Assembly (NCBI GenBank): GCA_049653105.1
Contig: JBASFQ010000017.1
Location: 3,304-67,303 of the forward strand
Direction of reading: 5' to 3'
DNA from: Alphaproteobacteria bacterium
GTDB lineage: Bacteria > Pseudomonadota > Alphaproteobacteria > UBA9219 > RFNS01
DNA length: 64,000 bases
The number at the start of each line of letters is the position of its first letter. Within the stretch, counting starts at the first letter, position 1. Shown here piece after piece: positions 12,229-34,696 of the stretch. Below the pieces are notes generated by a model that was given only the letters and a program-made list of their open reading frames with translations, did no database searches and was not told the DNA's origin. A program made the position numbers and the translations under genes.

Positions 12229-12240
12229 AGGATTGCACAA

Positions 12241-12516: not shown

Positions 12517-12533
12517 AAACTTCGGATAGAGCC

Positions 12534-13223
12534 ATGACCAAAAAGCATCAAGAAGGAAACTTCTGCAAGGCTGTCTGCGATATGCCCCGGCTGCGGAGTA
12601 AATTACACGAATGCAAAGAATTACAACTATCAGAACGCACCATCCGCGAACTTGAATTGAGCACGCAAGAAGCAATCAAAATATATTTTGCTAAACCCAC
12701 CAAGCACCTACGACCATCTCATGTCGCACGGAAAATATCCGCTATGGCGAATAGCCTAAAGAAAGTGGCGGGAATAATGGAAGAAGTCGGAGAGCATGGG
12801 ATGATGTTTCTGTGGGCAGCATCTAATGTAAACCGAGAAGTGGATTCTATGGACTGGAAATGCCATTATGCATATCTGCATCGCATGGCGCGTTGGGCTG
12901 AAAGCGCAGCCATAACATCAAAAGAACATAGCGCGTCACAGGAAGATCACAAGGGTGGACGGACACCGGATGAAAACCTAAATAGCCTGATAGTTATTTT
13001 GATGAGTCGCTTCCACGAAGTCTTATCCCTGCGCCCGACACATACGGTCGCGCCAGAGACAGGATTAGGAACAAGCATTTTTGACATGTATGTCAAAGAG
13101 GCATTCGAGTGCTTCGCTCCCGACGCGGTGCCGGAATCCCGTTGCATAGATGAGGCAATTGTAAGAGCATTACCCAGCCGCGATTCTAAGCTATTTACTC
13201 CCCCGCCATTTCCTGATGAATAG
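12534..13223 (+). CDS. Hypothetical protein, low-GC cargo gene inside the GC-rich integrative element
   Basis: 229-aa ORF; local GC is clearly below the flanking phage-like genes; no motif recognised. Confidence 0.45.
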   Translation: MTKKHQEGNFCKAVCDMPRLRSKLHECKELQLSERTIRELELSTQEAIKIYFAKPTKHLRPSHVARKISAMANSLKKVAGIMEEVGEHGMMFLWAASNVNREVDSMDWKCHYAYLHRMARWAESAAITSKEHSASQEDHKGGRTPDENLNSLIVILMSRFHEVLSLRPTHTVAPETGLGTSIFDMYVKEAFECFAPDAVPESRCIDEAIVRALPSRDSKLFTPPPFPDE

Positions 13224-13323
13224 CGTGCAATTTTGTCTGAGTTCGTGCTTTAGCTTTTTTCCGCAGGAATTTTAACTTGGCTCCGTAAACACCGCGCTGT
13301 GCGGTGAAGCTACGGAGGACAAC

Positions 13324-13521
13324 ATGAACAACATCGAACGGGAATTGCTTCCAATCCCGGAATTTATTGCCAAATTCGCTATCAGCAGAACAAGCGTCTA
13401 TCGGGAAATCGCCGCCGGGCGTTTGCGGATGACCAAACGCGGATCGCGCAGCTTTATCGCCCGGCAAGACGCACAGACATGGCTTGAAACCTTGCGCACG
13501 AATAGCGGGGGGCGGCCATGA
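13324..13521 (+). CDS. alpA: AlpA-family DNA-binding protein (excisionase/regulator-like)
   Basis: 65 aa: ...PEFIAKFAISRTSVYREIAAGRLRMTKRGSRSFIARQDAQTWLE (MerR/AlpA-type HTH). Overlaps the downstream primase gene. Confidence 0.6.
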   Translation: MNNIERELLPIPEFIAKFAISRTSVYREIAAGRLRMTKRGSRSFIARQDAQTWLETLRTNSGGRP

Positions 13522-14408
13522 CCCTGCAAAAAGAAAGCCGCGCCGGTGCGAACGGCGCGGCTTCACTTCAGCAAAATAAGCCTGTAAATCTTAGCGTTTC
13601 TGAAGAAAAAAGCAAGATTATCACGCCACAAACTCCAATGTTGGCAATAGCACTTGAGCTTACCAAACAAGGCTTGCCGGTCTTCCCTTGTTCGGCATCA
13701 AAAGTGCCAACTTGTCCCAGCGGGTTCAAGGCAGCCTCCAGTAATCCCGACGAAGTGCGGCGACTGTGGGCACAATATCCCGGCATTCTTGCCGGAGTGC
13801 CCACCGGAACTATTTCCGGGATTGCTGCACTTGATATTGACCCGCGTCATGGCGGCAACCAATGGCTGGCTGAATACGCACCCAAGCTACCAAAAACACG
13901 CACCAATCGGACGCGCAGCGGTGGGGTACACTTTATTTTTCAGCACCCAAGTGGATTGCGGAACTCCACCAGTCGCATTGCCCCCGGCGTCGATGTTCGC
14001 GCTGAAGGTGGTTGCGTTATTTGGTGGCCTGCCGCCGGTTTGCCTATCCTTGACGACACGCCACCAGCCCCTTGGCCAGAATGGCTGCTAACGATGGCAT
14101 TGCCCCCACCGCTGCCGCCGCCGCAACACAACCCTGTGCCATCGGTTGATTATGGCAATGTTGGAAATGCTTATGCCCACGCTGCATTGCGTCGCGCAGC
14201 AGCGAACGTGGCGGCGGCAGCAGAAGGAACGCGCAACAGCACGTTAAACCGCGAAAGCTGGGCACTTATGCGCTTTGTCGCCACCGGCTTGCTTGATCCC
14301 CAAGCCGTTGCCGATACGCTAACCACGGCAGCATTTTCTGCCGGACTTAGTCGCGGGGAAACCATCGCCACCCTAACCAGCGTTTTACGCGCCAGGGGGA
14401 TTGCATGA
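13518..14408 (+). CDS. Bifunctional DNA primase/polymerase (PrimPol) N-terminal domain protein
   Basis: LPVFPC...GIAALDIDPRHGG...GGVHFIFQHP...GVDVRAEGGCVIWWPAAG, then a Pro-rich linker. This is the typical P4-like/integrative-element replication gene. Confidence 0.65.
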   Translation: MTLQKESRAGANGAASLQQNKPVNLSVSEEKSKIITPQTPMLAIALELTKQGLPVFPCSASKVPTCPSGFKAASSNPDEVRRLWAQYPGILAGVPTGTISGIAALDIDPRHGGNQWLAEYAPKLPKTRTNRTRSGGVHFIFQHPSGLRNSTSRIAPGVDVRAEGGCVIWWPAAGLPILDDTPPAPWPEWLLTMALPPPLPPPQHNPVPSVDYGNVGNAYAHAALRRAAANVAAAAEGTRNSTLNRESWALMRFVATGLLDPQAVADTLTTAAFSAGLSRGETIATLTSVLRARGIA

Positions 14409-15955
14409 TGGACAAAGCGGAACAGATTGCCAGACAGGCGGCGCAATTTTCGGAAAATCCCCATAGTCCAGCGGCGTGGCCGGAACCACTGCCACTATTG
14501 GCACAGATAGCACCAGAGCCTTACCCTTTGGATGCCCTGCCCACGACGATGCAAGCGGCGGTCAAGGAAGTGCAAGCCTTCACCAAAACGCCAGTTGCGC
14601 TTGTGGCGGCTTCGGCACTGGGCGCATTGTCGGTTGCGGCGCAGGCCTATGTTGATGTGAAACGCGCTGAAAAACTCTGTGGTTCCGTCGGTGTGTTTCT
14701 GCTGACCATAGCGGATAGCGGTGAACGCAAAACCACCCTTGACGGTTTTTTCACTTCGGCAATTCGTGACTATGAACGCAACCAAGCGTTGTTAGCTAAA
14801 CCCGTGTTGGATAAATACAGGGTGGATATTGATATTTGGGCAACCGAACGCGCCGGGTTGCTGGAGAAAATCAAGCAAGGCATTAAAAAACAAACCGACA
14901 CCAGCGAGCAGAGAACACGGTTGCACACGCTAGAGGCAAGAAAACCGATGCCGCCGCGTGTTCCCCAGTTGTTGCGCGGCGATGATACGCCAGAAAATCT
15001 GGCCTGGGTCTTGGCGCAACAATGGCCTTCGGCTGGGGTAATTTCAAGCGAAGCGGGCATCATCTTCGGCGCACATAGCATGGGGCAAGATTCGATCATG
15101 CGGAATCTGGCCTTGCTGAATATTCTTTGGGATGGCGGTACGTTGTCTATCGGGCGGCGCACTTCCGAATCCTTTACCGTGCAAGGGGCGCGGTTGACGG
15201 TAGGTCTGCAAATTCAGCAAAGCACTTTGCGAAGTTTTTTCAGCCGTTCCGGTGGCTTGCCGCGTGGCACGGGTTTTCTTGCAAGGATGCTGCTGTCATG
15301 GCCTGTATCCACGCAAGGATACCGTCCTTTTACCGAACCACCCGAAGAGTGGCCAGCCTTGGCCGCATTTAACCAGCGCATTGCCGCGATATTGGCAAAT
15401 CCCGCGCCGGTGGATGCAATGGGCGCACTTAGTCCGGCAATACTGACCATGACGCCGGAAGCAAAAGCGGGATGGGTCATTTTCCACGACACCATAGAAC
15501 GCGAACTTAGAAAAGGTGGTGAACTTTACGACGTGCGCGATGTGGCGGCAAAAACCGCCGATAATGCCGCACGACTGGCGGCACTATTTCATGTCCTGGA
15601 ATATGGCTTAGACGGAACTATCGGCACAGAATCTTTCAACGGCGCAAGCCGCATTGCCGCATGGCATTTGAATGAGGCGCGGCGGTTCTTCGGGGAACTC
15701 GCTTTGTCCGAAGCGGCAGCGGATTCAATTCAGCTGAATAACTGGCTGCTGGATTATTGCCACAAAGCTGGCGCGAACAGCGTTTCACGCCGCGAAGTGC
15801 AACAATTTATCACTCCGACGCATTTGCGCGAACGGGAAAAGCTTAACCGGGCTTTGCTGGAATTGACTGAATTAGAACGCATTCGGGAAATCAGCACCGG
15901 AAAGCGAAAGGATATTTTGGTCAATCCCTGCTTACTGAGAAAGGCCAGCCAATGA
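14405..15955 (+). CDS. DUF3987-domain protein (primase-associated, helicase-like replication protein of integrative elements)
   Basis: 516 aa, overlapping the PrimPol stop. The conserved block GSVGVFLLTIADSGERKTTLDGFFTS and the overall architecture resemble YfjI/DUF3987 proteins that follow PrimPol genes. Confidence 0.6.
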   Translation: MMDKAEQIARQAAQFSENPHSPAAWPEPLPLLAQIAPEPYPLDALPTTMQAAVKEVQAFTKTPVALVAASALGALSVAAQAYVDVKRAEKLCGSVGVFLLTIADSGERKTTLDGFFTSAIRDYERNQALLAKPVLDKYRVDIDIWATERAGLLEKIKQGIKKQTDTSEQRTRLHTLEARKPMPPRVPQLLRGDDTPENLAWVLAQQWPSAGVISSEAGIIFGAHSMGQDSIMRNLALLNILWDGGTLSIGRRTSESFTVQGARLTVGLQIQQSTLRSFFSRSGGLPRGTGFLARMLLSWPVSTQGYRPFTEPPEEWPALAAFNQRIAAILANPAPVDAMGALSPAILTMTPEAKAGWVIFHDTIERELRKGGELYDVRDVAAKTADNAARLAALFHVLEYGLDGTIGTESFNGASRIAAWHLNEARRFFGELALSEAAADSIQLNNWLLDYCHKAGANSVSRREVQQFITPTHLREREKLNRALLELTELERIREISTGKRKDILVNPCLLRKASQ

Positions 15956-16503
15956 GGTTAGCGGAACTTATCAAGCATGGCGTTACCGTCGGAGTTGCTA
16001 CAGCTACACCCGCTACAATGGCTACACACGGCGAACAATTGGCCGCTAGTGTAGCGACAGTAGCAATTGTAGCTGTAGCGAAAGCTGAAAACTCAATTTC
16101 GCAAGAAGCCTGGGATGAACGTGCGGCAATCATCGCCGCCAATGGAATTCCTGACGCTTGGGCGGAAGGCTATGCCACGCTTTGCACCATGCCCTGCCCA
16201 GCGGCCTTTGTGCCGGAACGATGGCAACAGTTGGTGGACGATGGCGGGTACTTTCTTGACCGCTGGGGCAGGCAAGCGGCGTTGCTGGGCTGGCGGGCGG
16301 TGGACGTGTTCGGCGTCGATCCGGTAAGGCCGGAGACCGTTTACCGCAGCATGGGGCTTGTGTCGCTACTCGCTGGTAGGGCCGTCTGCGCCATTACCAC
16401 AGACGCGGCACGAATTGACTGCGGAAATGGGATCACACAATCATTCCGTCGTCGTGCAACATCGTGCGGTGCGGTTTCGCTCTGGAATCTTGAGCGCGGT
16501 TAA
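15952..16503 (+). CDS. Hypothetical phage-related protein
   Basis: 183-aa ORF translationally coupled to the DUF3987 gene. Confidence 0.4.
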   Translation: MRLAELIKHGVTVGVATATPATMATHGEQLAASVATVAIVAVAKAENSISQEAWDERAAIIAANGIPDAWAEGYATLCTMPCPAAFVPERWQQLVDDGGYFLDRWGRQAALLGWRAVDVFGVDPVRPETVYRSMGLVSLLAGRAVCAITTDAARIDCGNGITQSFRRRATSCGAVSLWNLERG

Positions 16504-18718: not shown

Positions 18719-19477
18719 TCATTCTTTGCGATCAGAACAAATAACGAAAGCAATTGCACCAACCACGAGGGTCACGAACAACTGTATGCGAAGCATTTCT
18801 TTATCAACTGCCTCTACAGCCCCTGTTATTGAACTACCGACAACATGGGACGGCGGAAAAAGCAGCATTCCCAACATCACTGCGGCAATGACAATAAGAA
18901 TCTGTCTGCGCTGTTTACCCATGTTTATGCCTATGGGAATTTGCTTTCTGCCCCATTTCTCGATCAACTCGGTCAGGCCATGGTCGGGCGGATCGGGCAG
19001 CGTGACCCTGAACCGGACATAGAAATCCCCGGCGGGGTTCCGGCCATAGGGCGGCAAGCCCTTGCCGCGCAGGCGCAGCAACGTGCCGGTGCTCACGCCC
19101 TTCGGCACCTTTACCATCGTCGTGCCGTCGAGGGTTGACACCTTGATGTTCGCTCCAAGTAGCACCTCGGTCAAACTGACCGTCGCATCAAGGTAAATGT
19201 CGCGGTTGACGCGGGTAAAATGCGGATGCGACGCGACTGCAATTTCAACGATGGCGTCTCCCGCACCATCCAGCCCGGCCAGCCCTTGGCCCTTCAGTCG
19301 TAGCTTGGTGCCGTTTTCGGAGCCAGGAGGGATATTGACATCGAGGGCCTTGCCGGAAGACAGCGTAACGCGCTGCTTGGATCCAAGGCACGACTCGACA
19401 AAACCGACCGCCAGCGCATAGGTCACATCGCCGCCGAAGCCCCCGCGCTTTCTTCTGCCGAACAGCTCGGCGAACAT
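18719..19477 (-). CDS. DnaJ C-terminal-domain (CTD I/II) protein with a C-terminal TM anchor; no J domain
   Basis: G/F-like segment DIFAEMFAELFGRRKRGGFGG, then DnaJ-CTD-like beta repeats (VTYALAVGFVESCLGSKQRVTLSSGKALDVNIPPGSENGTKLRLKGQGL ... YLDATVSLTEVLLGANIKVSTLDGTTMVKVPKGVSTGTLLRLRGKGLP ... GDFYVRFRVTLP), then two hydrophobic helices. The upstream 195 nt overlap the preceding lipoprotein gene in another frame, so there is no room for a J domain. Start placed at an internal ATG. Confidence 0.5.
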   Translation of the reverse strand: MFAELFGRRKRGGFGGDVTYALAVGFVESCLGSKQRVTLSSGKALDVNIPPGSENGTKLRLKGQGLAGLDGAGDAIVEIAVASHPHFTRVNRDIYLDATVSLTEVLLGANIKVSTLDGTTMVKVPKGVSTGTLLRLRGKGLPPYGRNPAGDFYVRFRVTLPDPPDHGLTELIEKWGRKQIPIGINMGKQRRQILIVIAAVMLGMLLFPPSHVVGSSITGAVEAVDKEMLRIQLFVTLVVGAIAFVICSDRKE

Positions 19478-19542
19478 CTCGGCAAAAATATCATGGGTGG
19501 TAGATTCGCCAATCGGATCGCCGTCGCCCTTTGTGCGCCATT

Positions 19543-20178
19543 TCACCGCTTCGCCATTTTCTTGGTTTCCCAATCTCTCAGTCCTTCGCGGATATAAAGG
19601 GCGGTATTCTGAACAATCTCCTGAACGGCGGATTGCCCGGCTTTGGCGACGGCCTCGCCAATGGCGGGACAACTCAGGTGAACTTCGACAGCACCAGAAC
19701 CTTTGCCGATTGGGGAATACTGATAGACCAGTCCGGTTTTGTCGGTGATGGCCAGAGTCGTGGTCAAGACAATATCGCTGTTCGCTGTGGCACTGAACAA
19801 GGCCGGGACAACAACCAGCTTGCTGTCCGCATTGCCTTGATAGATGGTGATCTGAGCGTCATATTTGTTTTTTTGAAGCTGTTCCGGTGACAATGCGCCC
19901 GGCACGAAAGTAATTTTTCCTACCGACTTGGTCAGCACATCACGCATGGCGCTTTCGTAAGGGGCGTTAATGTCGGCATTAAAACTCATGATGGCGCAAT
20001 TCATGCCTTGTGGATCGACTTTCAGTGCCCAGCCGCCAGTTTGTATCGTAGCGGCAAAATTTCCGGGTATAGGGGTTAGCCCGGTCGGGGTTTGCACATT
20101 GACCGGAGGGATGGTCAACCGGCTGGTGCAGCCAGTCAGAATTAGGGCAACGCATAGAATAAGGATGTTGCGTGTCAT
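19543..20178 (-). CDS. Lipoprotein (lipobox LTGC)
   Basis: MTRNILILCVALILTGCTS...; no other motif recognised. Confidence 0.5.
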   Translation of the reverse strand: MTRNILILCVALILTGCTSRLTIPPVNVQTPTGLTPIPGNFAATIQTGGWALKVDPQGMNCAIMSFNADINAPYESAMRDVLTKSVGKITFVPGALSPEQLQKNKYDAQITIYQGNADSKLVVVPALFSATANSDIVLTTTLAITDKTGLVYQYSPIGKGSGAVEVHLSCPAIGEAVAKAGQSAVQEIVQNTALYIREGLRDWETKKMAKR

Positions 20179-20645: not shown

Positions 20646-21002
20646 TTACGAAGGATTACAAAGCCGCCTGAGCATAAGGCGGATTGAGGCGAGGCGAATG
20701 TAAGCAAGTGCTGAGCGGGTGAGATTTTCCCAATCCTTGGCAAGACGACGGCAACGATTGAGCCAAGCAAAAGTGCGCTCAACCACCCAACGGCGCGGCA
20801 AAACCTCGAAGCCCTTGGCTTTGTCAGAGCGTTTGATAATTTCCGTTTTTAGTTGCGGCATAACTTTCGCCAACGCCTTCTGGAACTGTGGCCCCTGATA
20901 ACCACCATCGGCAAAAAGCTTTTCCAAAAACGGGAACATGCCGAACAACGTCGACAGCACCAATTTACCGCCATCACGATCCTGAATGTCTGCGGGATGC
21001 AC
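20646..21002 (-). CDS. IS5-family transposase, C-terminal DDE ORF
   Basis: DDE_Tnp_1-like C-terminus (GGYQG ... VVERTFAWL). Confidence 0.75.
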   Translation of the reverse strand: MHPADIQDRDGGKLVLSTLFGMFPFLEKLFADGGYQGPQFQKALAKVMPQLKTEIIKRSDKAKGFEVLPRRWVVERTFAWLNRCRRLAKDWENLTRSALAYIRLASIRLMLRRLCNPS

Positions 21003-21022
21003 GATGGCGTGCAGCAGAAAGC

Positions 21023-21484
21023 CTAGCGTATCGACAAGAATATGCCGCTTTTTGCCTTTGATCTTTTTTCCCGCATCAAAGCCGTTCGGGTCAATTTGCG
21101 CCCCCCTTTTTCTGCGCTTTTCACGCTTTGGCTATCAATCACGCAGGCGGTAGGGCTGGCTTCGCGCCCAATCTGTTCGCGACACTGCACATAAAGCGCG
21201 TGATGGATGCGCTCCAGCGTGCCGTCGTAATTCCAGAGATCAAAATAGCGGTGCAGCGTCGTCTTGGATGGAAAATCTTTGGGCACATAGCGCCATTGGC
21301 AACCGGTGCTCAGCACATACATAATGCCGTTGACTACTTCACGCATGTTCACGCGGCGCTTGCCACCACCCGATTTGGCGGGCGGTATGAATGGTGCAAT
21401 ATGCGACCATTCGTCGTCGGTCAGATCACTTGGGTAACGCAGCTTATCCCGGTTGTAGCGCGGGCGGTTTTCTCGTGTCCACAT
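21023..21484 (-). CDS. IS5-family transposase, N-terminal ORF
   Basis: WSHIAPFIPPAKSGGGKRRVNMREVVNGIMYVLSTGCQWRYVPKDFP (DUF4096-type). Confidence 0.75.
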   Translation of the reverse strand: MWTRENRPRYNRDKLRYPSDLTDDEWSHIAPFIPPAKSGGGKRRVNMREVVNGIMYVLSTGCQWRYVPKDFPSKTTLHRYFDLWNYDGTLERIHHALYVQCREQIGREASPTACVIDSQSVKSAEKGGRKLTRTALMREKRSKAKSGIFLSIR

Positions 21485-21565
21485 CAGCAGCCCCTCCTAT
21501 CGGGCTGCCTATATATGAATCACAAATGATTCATTCAATTCAACAAGTTTCGGAACGGACACTTA

Positions 21566-21948
21566 CAGCAAAAGAAACGCGGGAACTGACCGCTGAGGAA
21601 AGAGAATTCAGGAGCAAACGAAAGTTGGTGCAAGAAAAGCTCATCAAGTTTGCTACGCGAATCCCGGCTTTCATGTATCTCACCGACTTCCGTGAAAACA
21701 CTGTGCAGGATGTTATCACAAAGATCGAACCTGATCTATTCCGCACGGTCACAGGCCTTACTGTCCAAGATTTTCACCTGCTGGTAAAACTACGCGTGTT
21801 CAATACCGAGCAGATGAACCAAGCGGTGTTTGCCTTCCGGAGATACGAGGATGCTTCACTAAGATACACAGGCATCGAAAGCCACCAAGGCCTTAGTCAC
21901 TATGGCTTGTACGATACAGTTGTCGCAAAGGAAGCAGTTCGTTACTGA
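21566..21948 (+). CDS. Small hypothetical ORF immediately upstream of the ATPase gene (start uncertain, candidates GTG about 21627 or ATG about 21672); possibly clipped by the IS
   Basis: The frame opens only 45 nt left of the IS and has no ATG before the IS. The C-terminal 100 aa (IPAFMYLTDFRENTVQDVITKIEPDLF...) are unrecognised. Confidence 0.3.
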
Positions 21949-21984
21949 GTGTATGTAGACAGAGCCTGAATTTAAGAGGAAGCG

Positions 21985-24264
21985 ATGCTGAAAAAAATAG
22001 TCACAATTAAGAATGTTGGCCGTTTTCGTAATTCAGCAGCCGCAGGCGTGCCAGAATTTGCAAAGCACAGCTTTATATTCGGTGCAAATGGTCATGGCAA
22101 AACAACAATATGTGCAATCCTCAGATCGGTAAAAACCGGCGAGGCGTCGCATGTTGTCGGCAGGAAGACATTAGGAGTTGCTGATTCCGTAGGCATCGAT
22201 ATCCTAACGAATAGCGGATTGGTCAAATTCAGAGGGGCGGCATGGGATAGTGCCAAACCAGAAATAGCCATCTTCGACAGCAGTTTTGTTTCTGATAACG
22301 TTCATTCTGGCGATATTGTCGATAGCGACCAGAAGAGAAATCTTTATCGCGTCATCATAGGAGAGGTCGGCGTTGCGCTGGCCGTAAAGGAAAAAGCTCT
22401 TGCAGAAGAGAGCCGAACAAAAACAACGGAGATAACGCACTCTGCCGCAGCACTTCAGCCGCATATGGTCGGCATGAAGGCAGATGAGTTCGTAGCGCTT
22501 CGGCAGATCGATGAAATCGACCAGAAGATTGCAGCGCAGGAGAGCACGCTAACCGCCATCAGAGAAGCCGACTCTATCAAGAAGCAGAAGGAGCTGACTA
22601 AAGTTATTATCCCTGACCTTCCGGCCTACTTCGCTGGTCTTATGGCCAAGACAATAGACGACATTGCGAAGGATGCAGAGCAGCAGGTTAGAACACATTT
22701 TGAAGCCCACGGCATGACAACAAAAGACGGCGCGAATTGGGCCGTACAACAGATCGACCACACTGCCGATTCCTGTCCTTTTTGCGGCCAGGATACTAAG
22801 GGCCTTTCTCTGATCGCAGCCTATAAATCTGTCTTCAGTGACCAATATAAGGTGCTGCGCCGCGATATTAAAGTAATGAAGGACGGTATAGACCAGGCTA
22901 TGGGTGAAACGGCCATAGCTAAGCTCGAAACTTTTACCGTGACCCATAAGGCCACACTTGAGTTCTGGACCAAATACTGCCTTCTGAGCCAGACCGACTT
23001 ACAACTTCCCGCTGACTTGGCACAGGCTATCACGGGCATGCACTCAGCTGCCACTGTTCTTATTGAAAGGAAAGCATTAGCTCCATTGGAGGCCATAGCA
23101 ACCGATCAAAGTTTTTTACATGCGCAAGCCGCCTATGAGGCTATTAAAGATAAGGTTATCAACTTCAATCAAGCAGTTGAGACTGCCAACTCTCTTCTTG
23201 TCGCTCAAAAGGCCGCGGCCGGGACGGCCGATCTAGCCGTTGCTACCACGGAGATGAACAGACTGAAAACCAACAAGGCCCGTTTCGACGCCGCTGTAAT
23301 TCCGCTATGCGCAAATTATCAAGCTCTTGTGACCGCCCAAATAGAACTTGAGACACAAAAAAAAGCGATTAGAGATCAGCTAGACCAGCATACGAAAACC
23401 GTTGTCACACCATATCAGAAGCGGATTAATGAACTTCTTGAGAATTTTAATGCAGAATTCTCTATTGCTGAGACAAAACATAGCTATGTCGGAGGCTCCG
23501 CCACATCGACATATAGGCTTGTTATAAATAGAACGCCGATTGATATTGGCGGCGGAAATACGCCGATAGATACACCTAGCTTTAAAAACACTCTAAGTGC
23601 AGGTGACCGCTCGACCCTTGCCTTGGCGTTCTTTTTCGCTCACCTGGAACGCGATCCAGGTCTTACTCAGAAGGTTGTTATCTTTGACGATCCATTTAAT
23701 AGTCAGGATGCCTTCCGCCGTCGGCAAACCATCCTTGAGATTGTCAAACTCGGCAAACAATGTGCGCAGATCATCGTGCTCTCGCATGACCCTACATTTC
23801 TGAAACAGATTTGGGATAAATGCCTTCCGGTAGAGCGCGTCGCGCTTGCGCTTGCCGATCACGGGCAGCAAGGCACCAAAATCATGGCGCATGACCTAGA
23901 ACGGGCGTGCCAGGGAAGGACGGCAACAGAGACAGATGACCTGCAGGCTTTTATGACCCTTGGCACAGGACACCATATTGACATTATTCGCAAAATGCGG
24001 ACTGTCTTGGAAACCTACATGAAGACAACTTATCCAGCGCTTTTTAGTGATACGGATTGGCTAGGAGATATTGTTGGGAAAATACGAGCTGGCGGGGCCA
24101 CATACCCAGCTGTCTGCCTTTATGACGAGCTAGACGCAATCAACGACTACACCAAGCCTTATCATCACGGAGAAAAAATCACGGACAGGACCCCAGATAC
24201 GATTGATTCATCAGAACTGCGTGGCTTCACTAAACGGACATTGCGCATCGTTAACGCGATCTAG
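21985..24264 (+). CDS. AAA_13/RloC-like Rad50-type ATPase: split ABC head with a long coiled-coil insertion and a CxxC zinc hook; possible anticodon-nuclease-like C-terminus
   Basis: Walker A FGANGHGKTTICAIL at the N-terminus. About 400 aa of heptad-rich sequence with a central CPFCGQD. ABC signature/Walker B/H-loop near the C-terminus (LSAGDRSTLALAFFFAHL ... KVVIFDDPFNSQD ... IVLSHD). About 160 aa follow the H-loop. Confidence 0.55.
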   Translation: MLKKIVTIKNVGRFRNSAAAGVPEFAKHSFIFGANGHGKTTICAILRSVKTGEASHVVGRKTLGVADSVGIDILTNSGLVKFRGAAWDSAKPEIAIFDSSFVSDNVHSGDIVDSDQKRNLYRVIIGEVGVALAVKEKALAEESRTKTTEITHSAAALQPHMVGMKADEFVALRQIDEIDQKIAAQESTLTAIREADSIKKQKELTKVIIPDLPAYFAGLMAKTIDDIAKDAEQQVRTHFEAHGMTTKDGANWAVQQIDHTADSCPFCGQDTKGLSLIAAYKSVFSDQYKVLRRDIKVMKDGIDQAMGETAIAKLETFTVTHKATLEFWTKYCLLSQTDLQLPADLAQAITGMHSAATVLIERKALAPLEAIATDQSFLHAQAAYEAIKDKVINFNQAVETANSLLVAQKAAAGTADLAVATTEMNRLKTNKARFDAAVIPLCANYQALVTAQIELETQKKAIRDQLDQHTKTVVTPYQKRINELLENFNAEFSIAETKHSYVGGSATSTYRLVINRTPIDIGGGNTPIDTPSFKNTLSAGDRSTLALAFFFAHLERDPGLTQKVVIFDDPFNSQDAFRRRQTILEIVKLGKQCAQIIVLSHDPTFLKQIWDKCLPVERVALALADHGQQGTKIMAHDLERACQGRTATETDDLQAFMTLGTGHHIDIIRKMRTVLETYMKTTYPALFSDTDWLGDIVGKIRAGGATYPAVCLYDELDAINDYTKPYHHGEKITDRTPDTIDSSELRGFTKRTLRIVNAI

Positions 24265-24382
24265 GCATAAATCGAAATATAGACCTGAGAGAAGAAGGCC
24301 GATGCAAGCTCTTCACAATGAAGCGAGTTAAAGGTTCCCAAGGAGTAGACCCGATACCGAACTCTAGAGTCTGCATGATAGG

Positions 24383-25663
24383 TTGCCTATGCATTTTGCT
24401 TCAGAGGTTAACACAAACGAACTGCGGTGCATTCTCTCGCGGTTTTTATCTATTATTGGCTACATAAAATTAAAGCCACGTTTGGAGCAGATTGAGAAAC
24501 AAGCAAGAAACTCGGAATGGATGCGCTATTCTAAAGAGCGTCTTGGATTAGAGACGGCTCTAATTGAGGTTCTGTCTTACCAGAAATCTACGAATCGTAT
24601 TCTTTGGCCCCCTAGAAATCCAAGCCAGTATCGCTTGTACTCATTTATATCAACTGTTGTAAAAGTTTATAACCGCCTTCCTTCTCCAGCAAAAGTGAGG
24701 CTCACTGGAGAACTAAACAAATGCATTAACCAAGAAGATGGCTTTGGGCCTCTTGCATTTGAAATGAATATGGCAACTCATCTTATGTCGGCAGGATTTG
24801 ACGTCACATTCTCTGATCTTGAAGGACAAGCGCAATTTGATTTACTGGCTTGTAAAGACAATTGTGTTGTTGAGGTCGAATGCAAGTTCGTCTCAGCGGA
24901 TATAGGCCGGAAAATTCATCAGAGAAAATTTCTTCAACTGGCTGAACACCTCAGGCCATCGCTAGAAAATATTATTGAAAAGTCAGACGGGGGTACCTTC
25001 ATAAAAGTAGAACTAGTCGATAGGTTGTCTGCCAGCACGGAAGAGTTTGAACTAATTCGCAACAGTCTAGAAGAGGTTTTAAGAGGACAGGAAACAAATT
25101 CTCTGCGGCTGTCGGTGACAAAAAATAGATTTAACTTTTCTGAAAGCCCGATTGTTTCAGGCACAAGGAACCCTAGAATGCTTTTGGATTTGCAGGAGTA
25201 TGTCGCTAAATATTTTAACGTGAATAACTCGCACATCATGTTGCGGGCAGACATGAGCAGGGCAACTGCCTTACTTTTATCGGTGAGCAGCAAAAAACCC
25301 GATAGGGTCTTAAATAGTATATACGAAAAGCATTTACGTGAATCATCCAGACAATTAACAGGAACGAGAACAGGTATAGCATGCCTCTATTTTGCAGATT
25401 TAAGCGAAGATCAACTCCATGAGGTGGCTGGAACCGAATCCCATCTAATCAATGTCGTAAATCATATCCTAAGAAGAAGACCTAAGATGTATGGCGTTGT
25501 TCTAATGACGAGTGGAACAGTAAGGCAAAAAGACAGTAGGTTGCTATATGTACCGACGGTCACAAATGAAACCGGACCTGCTTACTCTTTTCGCAACCCA
25601 TTCGCTTCACCAGATGAAGCTGCAAGCGACGTATTCAATAAAATATTTGGCACCCATAATTGA
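24383..25663 (+). CDS. Hypothetical protein with a PD-(D/E)xK restriction-endonuclease-like core
   Basis: E(AFEMNMATHL)-x27-D(FDLLA)-x10-EVECK matches the E...D...ExK arrangement. Low GC. 118 nt downstream of the ATPase gene. Confidence 0.45.
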   Translation: MPMHFASEVNTNELRCILSRFLSIIGYIKLKPRLEQIEKQARNSEWMRYSKERLGLETALIEVLSYQKSTNRILWPPRNPSQYRLYSFISTVVKVYNRLPSPAKVRLTGELNKCINQEDGFGPLAFEMNMATHLMSAGFDVTFSDLEGQAQFDLLACKDNCVVEVECKFVSADIGRKIHQRKFLQLAEHLRPSLENIIEKSDGGTFIKVELVDRLSASTEEFELIRNSLEEVLRGQETNSLRLSVTKNRFNFSESPIVSGTRNPRMLLDLQEYVAKYFNVNNSHIMLRADMSRATALLLSVSSKKPDRVLNSIYEKHLRESSRQLTGTRTGIACLYFADLSEDQLHEVAGTESHLINVVNHILRRRPKMYGVVLMTSGTVRQKDSRLLYVPTVTNETGPAYSFRNPFASPDEAASDVFNKIFGTHN

Positions 25664-25722
25664 GTGTATCGCCATCAAAGGCAATAGCCTGAACTTTTAG
25701 AAGGCAGCCGCTGAGGAATAGC

Positions 25723-26706
25723 ATGGGCATCTTATCATTTTTGTTTGGACGTAACAGCCGGAAGTCACCCCATCGCATTGGTCAGAATAGCGCTCATTCG
25801 GTCACTTTTGATGAAAACCTTCTGCACATAGGTTCATTGAACTATTTTGGTTTTTATGAAACTTCTGAAACTGGAGAATGGGTAGTTAGCTGGCTAGATT
25901 CTGATCGTGAAAACCATGTGGGTGGATTTCGTGAACAAGGTCATGGTCGGTTCATATTGTACAATAAAATTGAGGATACAATCATTTTAGATAGCAAATT
26001 TGAGCGGCCAAATCATGGACACGTTGCTAATACTGGATTCTGCACGGTCGAAGATTGGATGTTTGGAAATGGACTAATGGGAACATTCTACGCTCTCTCG
26101 CCAGTAGGCGAAGTAGTAATTGAACGATATTTTGAGGCTAACATTTATAATAGTGCCATTTCGCCTAAAGGTATTCTTGCAGTATGCCAAACCTGTAACG
26201 CTAAGTGCGATGATGGCAATAAGTTGACTGCATTCGAGATCTCATCTGGAAGACAACTATTTTCTGTTACCCCATCAACAGGATGGGCTGATAGATACGA
26301 ATTTGATGAAGACAGTTATCAAATAATCGTTGTTCATGACCGTATAGGTAAATTCAGGTATGACATAAAGGGAACATTTCTCGATACGCAAAAATTCGAT
26401 GCCGACAAACTAATGTCGGATGATTCTGTATCCATTCTTTTAACAGTCGAGCAAAATCTGAAAACAGAGACGTCACAAGAAGAACTTGAATATCTGCTTA
26501 AATCGACTCTCCGTGCAAAATCTTTGCAAGTTAAAGAGCCAAATGGCTGGGATTCCGTCGCGCTTAAACTTGAAGGCATAACCCTTGAAAAATTGGGAAG
26601 AATAGATAAAGCTATTGTTGCTTACCAAGAAGCTCTATCTTTAAATCCTAAAATTGGTGTGGCCAAGCGCCTCTCGACATTGCAGAAGAAATTAAAGGCC
26701 GAATGA
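25723..26706 (+). CDS. Hypothetical protein with a C-terminal TPR-like helix pair
   Basis: 327-aa ORF 59 nt after the previous gene; the C-terminal ...IDKAIVAYQEALSLNPKIGVAKRL is TPR-like. Otherwise unrecognised. Confidence 0.4.
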   Translation: MGILSFLFGRNSRKSPHRIGQNSAHSVTFDENLLHIGSLNYFGFYETSETGEWVVSWLDSDRENHVGGFREQGHGRFILYNKIEDTIILDSKFERPNHGHVANTGFCTVEDWMFGNGLMGTFYALSPVGEVVIERYFEANIYNSAISPKGILAVCQTCNAKCDDGNKLTAFEISSGRQLFSVTPSTGWADRYEFDEDSYQIIVVHDRIGKFRYDIKGTFLDTQKFDADKLMSDDSVSILLTVEQNLKTETSQEELEYLLKSTLRAKSLQVKEPNGWDSVALKLEGITLEKLGRIDKAIVAYQEALSLNPKIGVAKRLSTLQKKLKAE

Positions 26707-26718
26707 TCTTCTTTAAAA

Positions 26719-27927
26719 TTATTTTTGCTTCACTTTTGACGTAAGACCAAGGCGAGACAATAATTCTTCACCGCTGATTGGTTCTTCGTATGGAACATCA
26801 GTCATGTAGAAAGCTGTGCGAGTCAGTATTTCACGTAAGAGTTGTCCATTTGATTCCTGATCTACGGCGATAACATCATCATCTTCCTCTACGCCGTACT
26901 TTTTAAATACTTCATTCGTAATTCGATCAAGTTCACGCTTTCTGCCAGAGCTGAGATAATATTTTATAACTTCTTCTATACGGGACTTAGCCTTCTGCAA
27001 TTGATGGTCGGGTTTTTCTAGCCATTCCGAGTCAATATTTATCTCTTCAGCAATTTGATCTGACCAAACAGACGGGTCAATAGGATTAGAAATCAATCCT
27101 ATTTTCTTGTTGGGTGTGCCGCCGCTCTCTGCGAGAACTACGCACCAGCTAACCATGTTGTACAGTGTGAAGTGACCTACCACTCGACCTGCATCGTTGC
27201 TCGTCACATAAATGAAATTGAACAATGGACCATAATCAGTGCTGAGCTTTTCAGATTGTGGAAGTAGCCGTGAGTCAAGAAAAGACCTATTTCTATTGAA
27301 ATTATCATCACCATTTTTCACAAAATGTCTTACATGGCTATATGGAGGCGATCTCAATTCTTCATTTCCGACTAGTGTGGCCCACAATACCATGCATGAT
27401 TTAGAAATTGAACGAATTGGCTCGGGCCCACCAAATGACAACGGAAAATGGACAGCTCCAAGGTTCTGTGAGACAAACATAGCTTGGCTATTTTGAAGAT
27501 TTTCTATTAGTTTTTCCTCAGTGCATCCTATTTGAGCGGCGATATGAGGCAGAAAACGCTTAATGTCCTCAATATTCTGCACTGTTATTTGAATTTGTGT
27601 ATTACCATCTGCATCTGTTGAAGTTAGAAATGGACGTATATTTAGTTCGGGGCTCCCGTCATTTCGTAGATTGAATTTATCATCCCCGGCTTGAATATTT
27701 TTTATCATTGGGGGTGCCTTGCCTGTCCCCGAATCGAGCTGCAGCATATTCCTTAAAATAGGAACTTGGGCGGTTATTACTTTGTCGATACTATCGCCAA
27801 AGTCGTGGTTGCATTGAGAACAATCGACTTGCGTGGTTGTCTTTCTTCCGCCCAACGCATTTAATAAAATATGTTCTGGTGGTGTGTTGGGGCCTAAGTC
27901 ATTTTCGCAGAAGATGCATTTTATCAT
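26719..27927 (-). CDS. HNH endonuclease-domain protein (HNH_5-type N-terminus; 402 aa with an unassigned C-terminal domain)
   Basis: N-terminus MIKCIFCENDLGPNTPPEHILLNALGG...CSQCNHDFG: CxxC, catalytic His in PEHIL, second CxxCNH. This is the motif arrangement of PtuB-like and Abi-associated HNH nucleases. Confidence 0.65.
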   Translation of the reverse strand: MIKCIFCENDLGPNTPPEHILLNALGGRKTTTQVDCSQCNHDFGDSIDKVITAQVPILRNMLQLDSGTGKAPPMIKNIQAGDDKFNLRNDGSPELNIRPFLTSTDADGNTQIQITVQNIEDIKRFLPHIAAQIGCTEEKLIENLQNSQAMFVSQNLGAVHFPLSFGGPEPIRSISKSCMVLWATLVGNEELRSPPYSHVRHFVKNGDDNFNRNRSFLDSRLLPQSEKLSTDYGPLFNFIYVTSNDAGRVVGHFTLYNMVSWCVVLAESGGTPNKKIGLISNPIDPSVWSDQIAEEINIDSEWLEKPDHQLQKAKSRIEEVIKYYLSSGRKRELDRITNEVFKKYGVEEDDDVIAVDQESNGQLLREILTRTAFYMTDVPYEEPISGEELLSRLGLTSKVKQK

Positions 27928-28086
27928 AATTGACCACTCAAGAATTGCGGGTAACAGCTCCCCAAATAGGTAAAACCACTAGATTTCAGCGGAGTCGGCA
28001 TGAGACCAAGACGCTCAATAAGTAGCCAATAACAGGGGGGTTTGAGTCAATGAGAGGCTTGTGGAAATGTAAGATTGTAGATTAGG
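27845..28086. repeat. Direct repeat copy 1 (about 242 bp): HNH gene 5' end (first about 25 codons) plus its upstream region, ending at the J-domain gene stop
   Basis: About 88% identical to 32646-32899 by eye alignment. Confidence 0.75.
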
Positions 28087-28816
28087 CGCACGATTTAAGT
28101 TTTTTTTCCACAATCTGCTTCTTCAGTTCATCCGCCAATTTGCCAAGAGGATCAAGCCCGTTTGCTTCTTGCTCTTCTATGGTTTTCTTAAGCCGATAGA
28201 TATCAGTTTTTAAAAGTGCTTCCACTTCCTGCTTTATTTCATCGGCTCTGCGCCGCAGTTGTGAATTACGGCGAATGGTCTTAACGATTCGAGAAGCTAC
28301 ATCTTCCCCAACGATTGCCTCAGGGTCCGCGCCGTATTCTTTGATAAGTCTTTCAATTGAAGCCAAATCACCTCTGTGGTAGGCGAGGTTTATCTGGGCC
28401 ATTAGTGACGTGCGCCTTAGACGCTCCTTCTCAGTCAATGCGAGATCAGGATGCATTTGTTTGACCGCGCGCCGGTATGCCTGTTTGAGTATCGGGGTAA
28501 TTTCAGGCTTTGAATTGGGTTGAGGTTCAATCAAGCCAGCTTCTTCAGCCGTTAGTTTTGCACGCTCTTCAGAAGCTTTTGCGTAAGCTCTAACATCGGG
28601 ATCATCGGGTGCCTGTTTTAGGCGTTCATTGGAAATCTTCACCTCTAGCTCATCGAGCTCAGCGTATAGGCGTCCCACTGTGTGAAAATAGCGTTGTTTG
28701 AACCGTTCTGTTTCTGTCGCAGTTGTTTCTAAAGATAGTTCTGCCGACACAAGCTGTTCTTCAAGCTCTTTTTGCTGCGCATCCAGCCGGGCTAGTTCTT
28801 CTTCTTCAGGAAGCAC
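28082..28816 (-). CDS. J-domain (DnaJ-like, HPD motif) protein with flanking coiled-coil segments
   Basis: Central J domain (residues about 105-165): ITPILKQAYRRAVKQMHPDLALTEKERLRRTSLMAQINLAYHRGDLASIERL, with helix II plus the HPD loop. GTG start overlapping the Sel1 gene stop by 11 nt. Confidence 0.65.
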   Translation of the reverse strand: MLPEEEELARLDAQQKELEEQLVSAELSLETTATETERFKQRYFHTVGRLYAELDELEVKISNERLKQAPDDPDVRAYAKASEERAKLTAEEAGLIEPQPNSKPEITPILKQAYRRAVKQMHPDLALTEKERLRRTSLMAQINLAYHRGDLASIERLIKEYGADPEAIVGEDVASRIVKTIRRNSQLRRRADEIKQEVEALLKTDIYRLKKTIEEQEANGLDPLGKLADELKKQIVEKKLKSCA

Positions 28817-30290
28817 TTATAGCCAGCCCTTCTTCAGCAAGTTCGGCATAATCACGAGACGAGAAGGCAATAACTTTCAATGCATTGGTTGCAAGTTGAC
28901 GGGCTTCAGCAATATCAGATGAAGTCATTTTTTTTGCAAGTTCGTCGCGCATCTTTATGGCATCAGCATGAAACTCTCTAATTCCTGGCTTCCCATACGA
29001 ACATGCGACGGCTAACAGAAACCACTTATAGGCTTGCACATAATCCTTCGGCACTCCATTTCCGGACTCATAGATTGCGCCAAGGCCTCTCTGAGAAAAA
29101 TAACATCCTTGATCAGCGGCTTTCAGGTACCACTTTACAGCCTCGGCGTAATTCGGAGAGTCATCGTTGTTGTGTTCATAAAAGTAACCTAGATCGTATT
29201 GGCTTAGCCGCTTGCTACTATCACGGTTCTCATAAGCCATTTTCAGCCAATGGAGGGCGGCAGCCGCATCTTTTCTCAGTCGCTTACCTGACGTGTATTC
29301 ACGAGCGAGCAATCTTTGCGAGTCGAGATTTCCCGCATTTGCGGCTTCTAGTAACATTCGCTCGGCGCGGCCCAAGTCTTGATCTAGGTGGTCGCCAGAG
29401 AGATACAGTGTGGCCAACGAAGAAGTGCCAGAGAATGCGCCAGATTTTTTATCTAACTCGATTTCACGCTCGTACCAAGTGACGGCTGCCTTCTTATCCG
29501 GCGTGATAAGTTGTGAAATTTTGGCTCCATGTGTTTGCTTGTAGCTCGCCGCTGCATTTCCGTACAAACAAAGGTTACCCAGCTGACGGCATGCCCATTT
29601 CCCTCCCAATTTGGCCGCACGAGACAGCCAGAAGATGCCGCGCTCGGTATTGTGTTGTGGATCTTTGTCGTCAAGTAGCCAGGAGCCAAGCACCTCGCAA
29701 GCATGCTCATGATCCTGCTCTGCAGCTGCTATCATCCATCGCATAGCTTCCATAGGATTGTATGGTCTTATTTTTCTTTTCCTATACTGCATAGCATATT
29801 CATATTGATCAGCTGGATCACCTGCCCTTGCTCGTTCCTCGTACCAGGCTAATGCTTGGCGATACAGCAGTGTTTCGTCGTGGTTCGGATTCCCAAGGTG
29901 GTTAGCTACCCTGGTTTCGGAGAGGTTTTCTGCAAGATACAATTGCGCTGGACCAAAGCAGAGTGATGCTGATTTTTCCAACCATTTAACTGCTTCTGGA
30001 TACTCGCTAATCTCTTCGAGGAGCAAGCTCAATTCAAACTGAGCTTCGGTGTGATTTAATTTGGCTGCAGCCAACAAATATGAGCGCGCTTGATCAAAGT
30101 TGGGTGTTTGGCTTTCATCATTTCTGTAGCGCATTCCCATCTTAAAGAGGCTGTCAGCGTCTTGTTTCTCAGGCACAGTAAGGGACTGTTGGATCGCCAC
30201 CAGACCGCGAGTGACGAGGCTAGTCGACTGCGCCTGAGGCAGAGTCGAATTCGTGTGTACCGTTGCTGGGAGTTGCTCGTTTTTGGGCAT
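28806..30290 (-). CDS. Sel1-repeat (TPR-like) protein, 494 aa
   Basis: At least 8 Sel1-like repeats, for example AEAVKWYLKAADQGCYFSQRGLGAIYESGNGVPKDYVQAYKWFLLA and AQFELSLLLEE...AVKWLEKSA. Translationally coupled to the J-domain gene. Confidence 0.7.
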   Translation of the reverse strand: MPKNEQLPATVHTNSTLPQAQSTSLVTRGLVAIQQSLTVPEKQDADSLFKMGMRYRNDESQTPNFDQARSYLLAAAKLNHTEAQFELSLLLEEISEYPEAVKWLEKSASLCFGPAQLYLAENLSETRVANHLGNPNHDETLLYRQALAWYEERARAGDPADQYEYAMQYRKRKIRPYNPMEAMRWMIAAAEQDHEHACEVLGSWLLDDKDPQHNTERGIFWLSRAAKLGGKWACRQLGNLCLYGNAAASYKQTHGAKISQLITPDKKAAVTWYEREIELDKKSGAFSGTSSLATLYLSGDHLDQDLGRAERMLLEAANAGNLDSQRLLAREYTSGKRLRKDAAAALHWLKMAYENRDSSKRLSQYDLGYFYEHNNDDSPNYAEAVKWYLKAADQGCYFSQRGLGAIYESGNGVPKDYVQAYKWFLLAVACSYGKPGIREFHADAIKMRDELAKKMTSSDIAEARQLATNALKVIAFSSRDYAELAEEGLAISAS

Positions 30291-31722: not shown

Positions 31723-31886
31723 ACTAATGATTTTGGATCATTCGCTATCATATAGTAGGTTGCGATAGGACTACAGAGTAGCCCTGATGAGAGGTTAGAA
31801 GATAGTAAGATTAACAGCTCTCCAGCCACCAGAGAATGAGCTCTGACTGGCCAGCTGTATTGTTCGTGTTGATCGGGGAAAATCTT

Positions 31887-32591
31887 ATGCGCCGGTTGCT
31901 CTCTCTGAATATCAGGCATGGTGGGGGCAGTCGCATACCGCGTGTTCTGGAATGGATTGAAGGTCAGCATCCAGATTTGGTTGTTTTGCTTGAATGGAGG
32001 GCCTCTAACGACCAATTACTATCAGTCACCTTGAAGCATAAAGGATTCGAACTTGCCAAGTTTTCAAAAAGTGGGGCTAGGGATAATGGGATAGTCGTTG
32101 CTGCCAAAGACTTCATCCGTGCAGAAAGAATTACACCAAAAGGTGCGGATAAGGGGGAGCTGGTTCTCGTCAGTTTGCATGAGCTAAGCTTATGCGCTGC
32201 CTACTTCCCTCAAGGGAATAATAAGGCAACATATTTCCAAGAGTTATTTGAATTGGCGGTACGTCATACAGACGTGCCATTTTTGGTAGTCGGGGACATA
32301 AACACTGGTAACAATCAGGTGGATTTGCCCAACGGTGCTACCCGATTTGCTTGCTCAAATATGTTTGATGCACTTTCGCGTGAACATGGGATGACCGACC
32401 TGTGGCGGCGGCAACATGGACCTCAAGCGCAGGAATGGACTTGGCATTCAGCCAAAAACGGCTTCCGTATAGACCACGCTTTTGCCAACCATACCTTTCT
32501 GGCTACTTTCCCGCGAGCGAGCTGCTATTATAATCACGACCCAAAGAAACTAAAAATTACAGACCACAGCGCCTTAATCATAGACTTCTAA
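31887..32591 (+). CDS. Endonuclease/exonuclease/phosphatase (EEP, ExoIII-like) family protein
   Basis: MRRLLSLNIRHGGG ... LVVGDINTGNN ... GFRIDHAF ... ITDHSALIIDF. Start probably at the internal ATG (track ORF begins at 31836). Confidence 0.6.
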   Translation: MRRLLSLNIRHGGGSRIPRVLEWIEGQHPDLVVLLEWRASNDQLLSVTLKHKGFELAKFSKSGARDNGIVVAAKDFIRAERITPKGADKGELVLVSLHELSLCAAYFPQGNNKATYFQELFELAVRHTDVPFLVVGDINTGNNQVDLPNGATRFACSNMFDALSREHGMTDLWRRQHGPQAQEWTWHSAKNGFRIDHAFANHTFLATFPRASCYYNHDPKKLKITDHSALIIDF

Positions 32592-33805: not shown

Positions 33806-34696
33806 ATGGTATTTACCATTTTTTTCTCCGGAAGGATCGCAGTTCTGCCTTCCGGGAAACAGAAAAGGCTAGCAGAGGGCGCAAATACCAGGATCGCGCC
33901 TCTCCCTGTTACAGACACGCTTCATTTTAGCTATTTTTTTGTATCTTCATTCAATTTTACTGGACAAAATCGACTTTGCGGTGTTATTTCACGGAACATG
34001 GTTGACCGGGAACAATTCGCTTCCTCAGTAGATAAAGTTGTTGAAGAGGCCATTTCGGCAATCAGCAAACGGTCGGTCGTTCCCCCTCCCGGACAAACTG
34101 CCAAGCAACAGCAAGAGACGCATACGAGCTGTTGGAAAGATTATGCCGAAGCCCTGACTAAAAGGAAAAGAGAGCTGGACGAGCAAGACCAGATCGTTGC
34201 GACGTATTTCAAGGATCCGGGGTTCAATACCAATACATGGCGTATGATAGCGTGGGTCGATACCGAGCAACTCCAAAAAGACATCGTACAGACGCCTCCC
34301 CTATCCGCTGATCATGGGTTAGAGGCCATGCCGATGCAGCATCGGAATGGCGGCCATTTTTCTGTCAAACACGGTGAAATCGCCTTTAATGACGAAACTG
34401 CCAGCCGCAGCTTTGAACTCCTGGATACGAGCATGCAGCATGTCAAGAATGCATGGAACGGCACACGGATTCAGCTCACCGGGGATCAACAATTTAAAGA
34501 TATCAGTTGGGCCTTGGCACAAAAACATGGGATCAAGGTTGAAGGTTTCATGCCCGACAGCGCCGTCAAGATGACGGAAAAAGAGCGCAAGGATCTGGCG
34601 GAGCGCATGATCGCCGATTATCAGAAAAACAAACAGGAACCGAAGCGCCCCGAGTTCCTTTCTTGGCCAACACTAAATGAAAAGCTGGCAGCCTGA
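33806..34696 (+). CDS. Hypothetical protein (true start possibly about 33998, MVDREQF...); C-terminal region weakly reminiscent of relaxase-associated LPD7-like domains
   Basis: ORF only; GC is lower than the core. The LPD7 resemblance (IQLTGDQQFKDISWALAQKHGIKVEG) is weak. Confidence 0.3.
   Translation: MVFTIFFSGRIAVLPSGKQKRLAEGANTRIAPLPVTDTLHFSYFFVSSFNFTGQNRLCGVISRNMVDREQFASSVDKVVEEAISAISKRSVVPPPGQTAKQQQETHTSCWKDYAEALTKRKRELDEQDQIVATYFKDPGFNTNTWRMIAWVDTEQLQKDIVQTPPLSADHGLEAMPMQHRNGGHFSVKHGEIAFNDETASRSFELLDTSMQHVKNAWNGTRIQLTGDQQFKDISWALAQKHGIKVEGFMPDSAVKMTEKERKDLAERMIADYQKNKQEPKRPEFLSWPTLNEKLAA

Follow-up and report, generated by a model that had tools for sequence, protein, structure and literature searches.

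The DNA under study is a 64,000-nt stretch of contig JBASFQ010000017.1 from an alphaproteobacterial genome (assembly GCA_049653105.1), referred to below as the window, and the genes in question are three open reading frames (ORFs) of 759, 426, and 327 aa that lie on its plus strand with intergenic gaps of 118 and 59 nt. A preliminary description gave the same ORFs and gaps and read them as a candidate defence cluster of an SMC-type ATPase sensor, a PD-(D/E)xK nuclease, and a tetratricopeptide repeat (TPR)-like protein. As an alternative it proposed that the ATPase was RloC-like, with a nuclease of its own. RloC, for restriction-linked ORF C, is an anticodon nuclease (ACNase) of COG4694 that excises the wobble nucleotide (Davidov & Kaufmann 2008, PMC2610378). 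Our analysis indicates that the 759-aa ATPase is in all probability an ordinary member of the RloC family, a new sequence of a known kind of single-gene defence enzyme, and that the genes downstream are independent low-GC cargo. The ATPase gene has the following features:

21985-24264, plus strand: ATPase gene of probable RloC family, 759 aa, with a split ABC head, a helical zinc-hook insert, and a C-terminal putative ACNase domain
22081-22107, plus strand: Walker A motif GANGHGKTT, residues 33-41
22774-22785, plus strand: zinc hook CPFC, residues 264-267, the sole CxxC in the protein
23593-23790, plus strand: C-lobe ABC motifs, namely the signature LSAGD (residues 537-541), Walker B VVIFDD (residues 564-569), and the H-loop histidine H601
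23920-24261, plus strand: C-terminal all-helical domain, about residues 646-759, with the putative ACNase triad
23998-24000, 24010-24012, and 24163-24168, plus strand: triad residues R672, E676, and H727/H728, respectively

The motifs of the ATPase were strictly conserved. Residues K39, C264, C267, S538, D568, H601, R672, E676, and H728 were invariant in all 183 aligned homologues, which bears out the split ABC head and single CPFC hook of the preliminary description. The putatively helical insert between the N-lobe and the C-lobe is also present and is low in proline and glycine, though at ~350 aa (about residues 125-480) it is shorter than the ~400 aa of coiled coil that had been claimed, and the tail beyond the H-loop, put earlier at 160 aa, counts 158 aa. 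Searches with E ≤ 1e-10 against a large protein database returned 328 homologues, nearly all of them 759-763 aa long, and several of these carry the label ‘wobble nucleotide-excising tRNase’ from JGI and NCBI.

Profile searches placed the protein in the same neighbourhood. Pfam AAA_13 matched residues 11-614 (1.1e-34), and the best PADLOC match was to PDC-S06 (model PDLC04895, 4.4e-64, residues 1-683), with ten other PDC-S06 models matching as well. The PDC-S06 match was far above that to LmuB, which was weak and partial (2.4e-15, profile positions 269-590 of 611). PDC-S06 appears to cover AAA_13/RloC-type proteins under another label; it is a computational single-gene candidate for which we found no published mechanism, and two papers that include it in their lists report no test. 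NCBIfam gave only ABC matches far below threshold, with Rad50 scoring 13.3 bits where the cutoff is 1000, and comparison with PDB matched only the signature-to-H-loop segment of Rad50 (residues 537-604). We rejected a Rad50/SbcC identity on these two results and on the lack of an adjacent phosphoesterase partner.

The published screen for RloC orthologues looked for the ABC motifs, a CXXC, and an Arg-X3-Glu-X36-52-His triad, in proteins of 658-897 aa (PMC2610378). The window ATPase has the ABC motifs, a single CxxC, a size within this range, and a triad of R672-x3-E676-x50/51-H727/H728 that falls within the published spacing. A tblastn search of plasmids also picked up a 770-aa AAA ATPase from a plasmid of Rhodoferax ferrireducens T118, which in organism, length, and ‘helicase-like’ flank matches entry 39 of Table S1 in the RloC paper (PMC2610378). 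BLASTP aligned this protein to residues 1-756 of the ATPase (E 1e-87, 29% identity), with the CPFCGQ hook, the R-x3-E, and the HH in register. The earlier alternative of an RloC-like protein with its own ACNase-like C-terminus is therefore the one favoured by both the triad and the end-to-end alignment with a listed orthologue. A search of the literature after 2019 for the RloC zinc hook together with phage found nothing.

We examined the genomic context of the ATPase in 80 loci of homologues with 33-72% identity and flanks of up to 8 kb, and in its six closest relatives (65-81% identity). Restriction genes were common upstream. A type III-like Res helicase gene lay 8-21 nt 5' on the same strand in L166 (81% identity), L001 (72%), L174 (70%), L002 (70%), and L172 (65%), and these Res genes were of two unrelated kinds. 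In L170 (69%), Res and Mod genes were found about 3.5 kb upstream on the opposite strand. The order Res then RloC is thus usual in this subclade, and it is the sole mildly new point of the analysis. Among the more distant loci, the same-strand gene directly upstream encoded a type IIG Eco57I/MmeI-like enzyme in four (L006, L024, L040, and L051), HsdR of type I in one (L041), and a type III Res in another (L068), and an EcoRII-C family protein occurred once among 29 upstream neighbours scanned jointly. Roughly one third of the 80 loci had a restriction-modification (R-M)-type gene within 4.5 kb, as read from neighbour clusters. Genes for resolvase, RepA, ParA, and coupling protein were also frequent neighbours, and the ATPase gene therefore travels on plasmids and transposons.

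Separately, an ArdC-type anti-restriction gene lies 1.8 kb 3' of the RloC homologue in L170 (L170:11088-12227), alongside the type III R-M pair. An association between RloC and ArdC was remarked on in the 2008 RloC paper (PMC2610378).

Immediately upstream of the window ATPase, a restriction gene has been reduced to its 3' end, and a transposase gene adjoins it:

20646-21484, minus strand: IS5-family transposase in two frames, with a DUF4096 part at 21023-21484 (8.8e-28) and a DDE_Tnp_1 part at 20646-21002 (8.9e-18), both by Pfam
21511-21948, plus strand: 3' remnant of a restriction subunit, with its stop codon 36 nt 5' of the ATPase start

The preliminary description had counted this remnant as a small upstream ORF (21391-21948). 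We found instead that its 21511-21936 stretch matches residues 704-846 of a ResIII helicase of 846/847 aa with 77% identity (82% across the best 130 residues), making it the last 143 codons of a restriction subunit of the ResIII/GIY-YIG kind; the rest of that gene was found nowhere else in the window. By tblastn the remnant was 77-82% identical to plasmid genes of Rhizobium, Pseudosulfitobacter, Sphingopyxis, Deinococcus, and others. The full-length counterpart has a Pfam ResIII match and is annotated as a DEAD/DEAH helicase or a GIY-YIG nuclease, and in pRphaN671a the intact ResIII gene comes after an Eco57I-type methylase. The transposase gene lies directly upstream of the remnant, and we infer that an IS5-family element truncated the restriction gene. 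An inverted-repeat search for the ends of this element gave no clear terminal inverted repeats. Kinship of the remnant with the Res genes that precede the ATPase in its closest relatives was considered and rejected, as sequence comparison showed no relation. With the window copy included, the upstream slot of the subclade is occupied by Res genes of three or more unrelated kinds. A nearly identical setting has been described for the active RloC of Geobacillus kaustophilus, which has a transposase and an R-subunit C-half as its neighbours (PMC2610378).

RloC activity is regulated by its zinc hook, ATP, and DNA, and ends in excision of the wobble nucleotide (PMC2610378, PMC3458546). By homology with the G. 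kaustophilus enzyme, the Rad50-like ABC head and the helical arm tipped by the zinc hook would keep the C-terminal HEPN-like ribonuclease domain of the window protein silent. During phage attack, DNA ends or some other perturbation of DNA, together with ATP hydrolysis, would release the nuclease, which would cut tRNA anticodon loops and stop translation in the infected cell. That the gene usually lies 3' of a restriction gene points to a back-up function behind restriction. The window copy would then be an intact but orphaned rloC, left inside an integrase-bearing genomic island after the IS5-family cut. The tRNase activity, the DNA/ATP switch, and the coupling to restriction are all predicted here by analogy with the published enzymes.

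It is possible, and we suggest it tentatively, that the subclade is the regular 3' partner of type III-like Res genes in a Res-then-RloC operon. If so, the operon would carry over to type III-like systems what PrrC exemplifies for type Ic, namely a tRNA nuclease that stands guard over a restriction enzyme and fires once that enzyme is put out of action. The window copy would be a natural ‘orphaned guard’, and its persistence would mean that no restriction partner is needed to keep the nuclease silent. The Res-RloC linkage also supports the older view, so far thinly documented, that RloC and restriction systems work together.

A stricter version of this coupling, which we consider unlikely, is that the nuclease depends on a type III-like restriction enzyme in cis to silence or trigger it, as PrrC does with EcoprrI (PMC2610378, PMC3710099), and that the window copy is a non-functional or unexpressed relic. 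Five of the six closest relatives have a Res gene in the same orientation 8-21 nt upstream, a spacing that suggests co-transcription, and with only 143 R-gene codons left and the IS5-family transposase gene directly upstream, the native promoter may be lost. However, the ATPase ORF of the window is full length and has kept all of its catalytic residues, the unrelated Res kinds found upstream speak against a specific protein-protein fit, and most distant homologues have no adjoining R-M gene at all. The G. kaustophilus RloC is itself active in its similarly disrupted surroundings, and RloC has a published internal zinc-hook/ATPase switch that permits transfer without a silencer (PMC3458546). 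We favour this internal switch over a specific silencer of the PrrC style because at least three unrelated Res types occupy the slot and because an intact copy persists without a partner.

The nuclease assignment of the C-terminal domain rests on the triad motif, its invariance, and the full-length homology to the Rhodoferax orthologue, and together these support an RloC-like anticodon nuclease whose tRNase activity is predicted by homology. An AlphaFold2 model of the last 148 aa, built from a shallow 28-sequence alignment, formed a five-helix bundle with a predicted local distance difference test (pLDDT) score >90 for most of residues 646-759. HEPN domains were frequent in the Foldseek top 50 against PDB (2hsb, 1ufb, 1o3u, 7ae6, 6m6u, 8xeh, and Csx1), all of them non-significant; the HEPN structure 2hsb had a probability of 0.90 and template modelling (TM) scores of 0.53/0.60, again non-significant. 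The nucleases of RloC and PrrC have been placed among HEPN (PMC3710099), and the HEPN-rich list is consistent with that class, though not proof of it.

Several observations weigh against the RloC reading. No Foldseek match of the C-terminal model was significant (best E 0.5), and Pfam on the C-terminal 150 aa alone found no family, not even the C-part of AAA_13, with only a meaningless DUF6357 match at E ≤ 10. The listed orthologue that anchors the homology is itself uncharacterised, and the window protein has Tyr-His-His where the published triad often has Ser before His. We detected no intrinsic terminator in the 118-nt gap 3' of the ATPase gene, which makes read-through into the PD-(D/E)xK gene possible. 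The orphaned copy may also be inactive if the subclade needs a restriction partner.

The lack of Pfam and significant structural matches leaves room for a C-terminal domain that is not an anticodon nuclease, in an AAA_13/PDC-S06 ATPase whose output is something else, for example DNA binding, recruitment of a further factor, or RNA cleavage of a general kind. That PDC-S06 is only a PADLOC candidate, with no test reported where it is listed, also fits this possibility, as does the ‘poor ACNase triad’ remark against several orthologues in Table S1 of the RloC paper (PMC2610378). We regard it as somewhat less likely again than the PrrC-like dependence. The R-x3-E-x50/51-H of the window protein conforms to the published pattern and shows no variation in 183/183 homologues, it aligns with the same residues of the Rhodoferax RloC orthologue, and HEPN folds dominate even the weak structural matches.

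Downstream of the ATPase, the genes are arranged as follows:

24383-25663 (TTG start, 426 aa) or 24389-25663 (NCBI ATG call, 424 aa), plus strand: PD-(D/E)xK gene
25723-26706, plus strand: gene for a TPR-tailed protein, 327 aa
26719-27927, minus strand: gene for an HNH_5 protein, 402 aa

Base composition separated these genes from the ATPase. The preliminary description had called its three genes uniformly low in GC, a claim that does not hold: GC was 48.5% in the ATPase gene and 47.5% in the upstream remnant against 41.5% in the PD-(D/E)xK gene, 40.0% in the TPR gene, and 41.2% in the HNH gene, with 52.9% for the window. GC at third codon positions was likewise 49% in the ATPase gene versus 38%, 33%, and 37% in the PD-(D/E)xK, TPR, and HNH genes. 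The three downstream genes are a separate lower-GC block, and the composition of the ATPase gene matches that of the upstream remnant. A scan for terminators and promoters gave fewer sites than in shuffled sequence and none within the intergenic gaps. When 21391-27927 was compared by megablast with plasmids and with E. coli genomes, nothing matched.

The downstream genes were not partners of the ATPase in other genomes. Homologues of the PD-(D/E)xK, TPR, HNH, and other window-neighbour proteins were found in 0/80 of the ATPase loci, clustering of all neighbours at those loci revealed no conserved downstream partner, and neither the PD-(D/E)xK nor the TPR gene was present in the six closest ATPase relatives. 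In the opposite direction, none of the three PD-(D/E)xK loci with context had an AAA_13 or TPR gene; there the PD-(D/E)xK homologues stood alone amid housekeeping or metabolic genes. For the TPR-tailed protein we used 80 metagenomic loci, found with eight closer sequences, and 0/80 held a PD-(D/E)xK, HNH, or credible ATPase homologue. The one ABC-ATPase match among them (L131) was at chance level and on the opposite strand. The two loci of the closest TPR relative (L167 and L168) also had no PD-(D/E)xK or ATPase homologue. PADLOC and NCBIfam returned nothing for the PD-(D/E)xK, TPR, and HNH proteins or the upstream ORF.

None of the three locus sets showed homologues of these genes side by side elsewhere, an outcome that the preliminary description had itself named as refuting the cluster. 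The ATPase, PD-(D/E)xK, and TPR genes are therefore not a three-gene system, and the downstream genes are independent low-GC cargo. A cluster in which the ATPase senses DNA, the PD-(D/E)xK nuclease is the effector, and the TPR protein is an adaptor, Lamassu-like with inverted gene order, is very improbable: the shared strand, the short gaps of 118 and 59 nt with no terminator detected between the genes, the intact and invariant PD-(D/E)xK catalytic residues, and the weak LmuB match of the ATPase (2.4e-15) would suit it, but the partners are missing from the ATPase and TPR loci, the PD-(D/E)xK homologues are solitary, the closest TPR relative keeps other neighbours, the base composition differs, the downstream proteins have no PADLOC match, and the ATPase already has a conserved effector domain of its own. 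The candidate three-gene system of the preliminary description is corrected to a known single-gene RloC with unrelated cargo, and is not worth pursuing as a novel system.

The 424/426-aa neighbour has the E...D...(D/E)xK core of PD-(D/E)xK nucleases, as the preliminary description had recognised from its E...D...EVECK signature. Counting residues from the TTG start at 24383, the core E127...D153...E164-V-E166-C-K168 was invariant in 9/9 family members, and so was an S-x-D-x-G-R-x-x-H motif downstream of it. The family is very rare, with nine proteins of 28-52% identity in a database of 5.8 billion sequences. A helical N-terminal domain and an alpha/beta C-terminal domain flank the core. The structural model (pLDDT 76) superposed locally on archaeal Hjc resolvase with a probability of up to 0.98 and a root-mean-square deviation of 1.4-2.2 Å over about 50 columns, with a global E of only 0.14-0.3, and Pfam Hjc matched the protein at E 0.08.

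The 327-aa protein had been called TPR-like, and it does have a single TPR at residues 280-310 (Pfam TPR_1, 2.6e-07), while its first ~260 aa form another conserved domain with no Pfam match. The family is widespread and uncharacterised (159 cluster representatives at E ≤ 1e-30), with variable neighbourhoods. Its closest relative (61% identity; L167:6001-7632 and L168:1171-2802) has an unrelated 432-aa protein before it and a DUF6338 protein 19 nt after it, and the DUF6338 protein was absent from the window. The possibility that the 432-aa gene is a diverged PD-(D/E)xK gene was rejected, as BLASTP showed no similarity. The HNH protein consists of an N-terminal HNH_5 domain (5.9e-10) followed by 350 aa, and its gene is convergent with the TPR gene, the two lying 12 nt apart.

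The wider window includes a genomic island around these genes. Markers of its start, within 10113-16503, are a tyrosine integrase (10113-11402), a Prim-Pol protein (13518-14408), and a DUF3987 protein (14405-15955). Its probable right edge falls before tsaD (34983) and is marked by tsaD and gpsA (36062), within 34983-37072, where GC climbs to about 0.61. Neither att sites nor a flanking tRNA could be identified for the island, the sole tRNA being tRNA-Leu at 63698. Towards the distal end are an Exo_endo_phos family nuclease/phosphatase (31836-32591) and a protein with an LPD7 domain (33806-34696), a domain typical of the polyvalent proteins of conjugative elements. Upstream of the island are an Imm42 immunity-protein homologue (8246-8839, 4.5e-15) and a separate rve-type (IS481/IS3-like) transposase (5804-6787, minus strand).

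Elsewhere in the window, two overlapping genes lie on the minus strand (28082-30290): the product of one is a coiled-coil protein that matches the J-domain weakly, and that of the other is a protein of 494 aa with Sel1 repeats. L170 likewise has a Sel1-repeat ORF near its RloC homologue (L170:10103-10705), possibly just repeat-family similarity. The minus-strand ORF at 18719-19672 has a strong DnaJ C-terminal domain match (2e-36), an atypical N-terminus with a TTG start and no J-domain match, and a hydrophobic tail; it may represent a dnaJ-like gene that has been truncated or has diverged.

Comparison with named systems. The ATPase resembles Lamassu LmuB and Rad50/SbcC in its ABC head with a helical insert, and Rad50 also has a zinc hook. 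It differs from them in having no LmuA, LmuC, or Mre11/SbcD neighbour, and Rad50, SbcC, and T4 gp46 lack any equivalent of the nuclease-type domain fused at the C-terminus (PMC2610378). A Lamassu assignment was rejected on the weak and partial LmuB match, the neighbours without PADLOC matches, and a candidate effector that never co-occurs with the ATPase elsewhere; the inverted Lamassu and the SMC-type sensor/nuclease cluster of the preliminary description fall with it.

Like the window protein, PrrC has an ABC ATPase N-domain, a C-terminal nuclease with an Arg-Glu-His triad, and an adjoining restriction gene, and both presumably back up restriction as a second line of defence. PrrC lacks a coiled-coil/zinc-hook insert and is invariably found within a type Ic hsd locus (PMC2610378, PMC3458546), whereas the window ATPase has a 350-aa zinc-hook insert and its neighbour is a remnant of a helicase-type R gene, not hsdMSR. 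We rejected a PrrC identity on these two differences.

RloC is the closest. The window ATPase differs from its listed Rhodoferax orthologue at the level of 29% identity and from the usual triad in having Tyr, not Ser, before the catalytic His, and the linkage in cis to Res that is usual in its subclade contrasts with R-M linkage in 8/72 of the published orthologues (PMC2610378). It shares with RloC the split ABC head, the helical insert with a single CxxC, the C-terminal Arg-x3-Glu-x(36-52)-His, and a matching length at 759 aa, and like RloC it sits on mobile DNA beside transposase, resolvase, and R-M genes.

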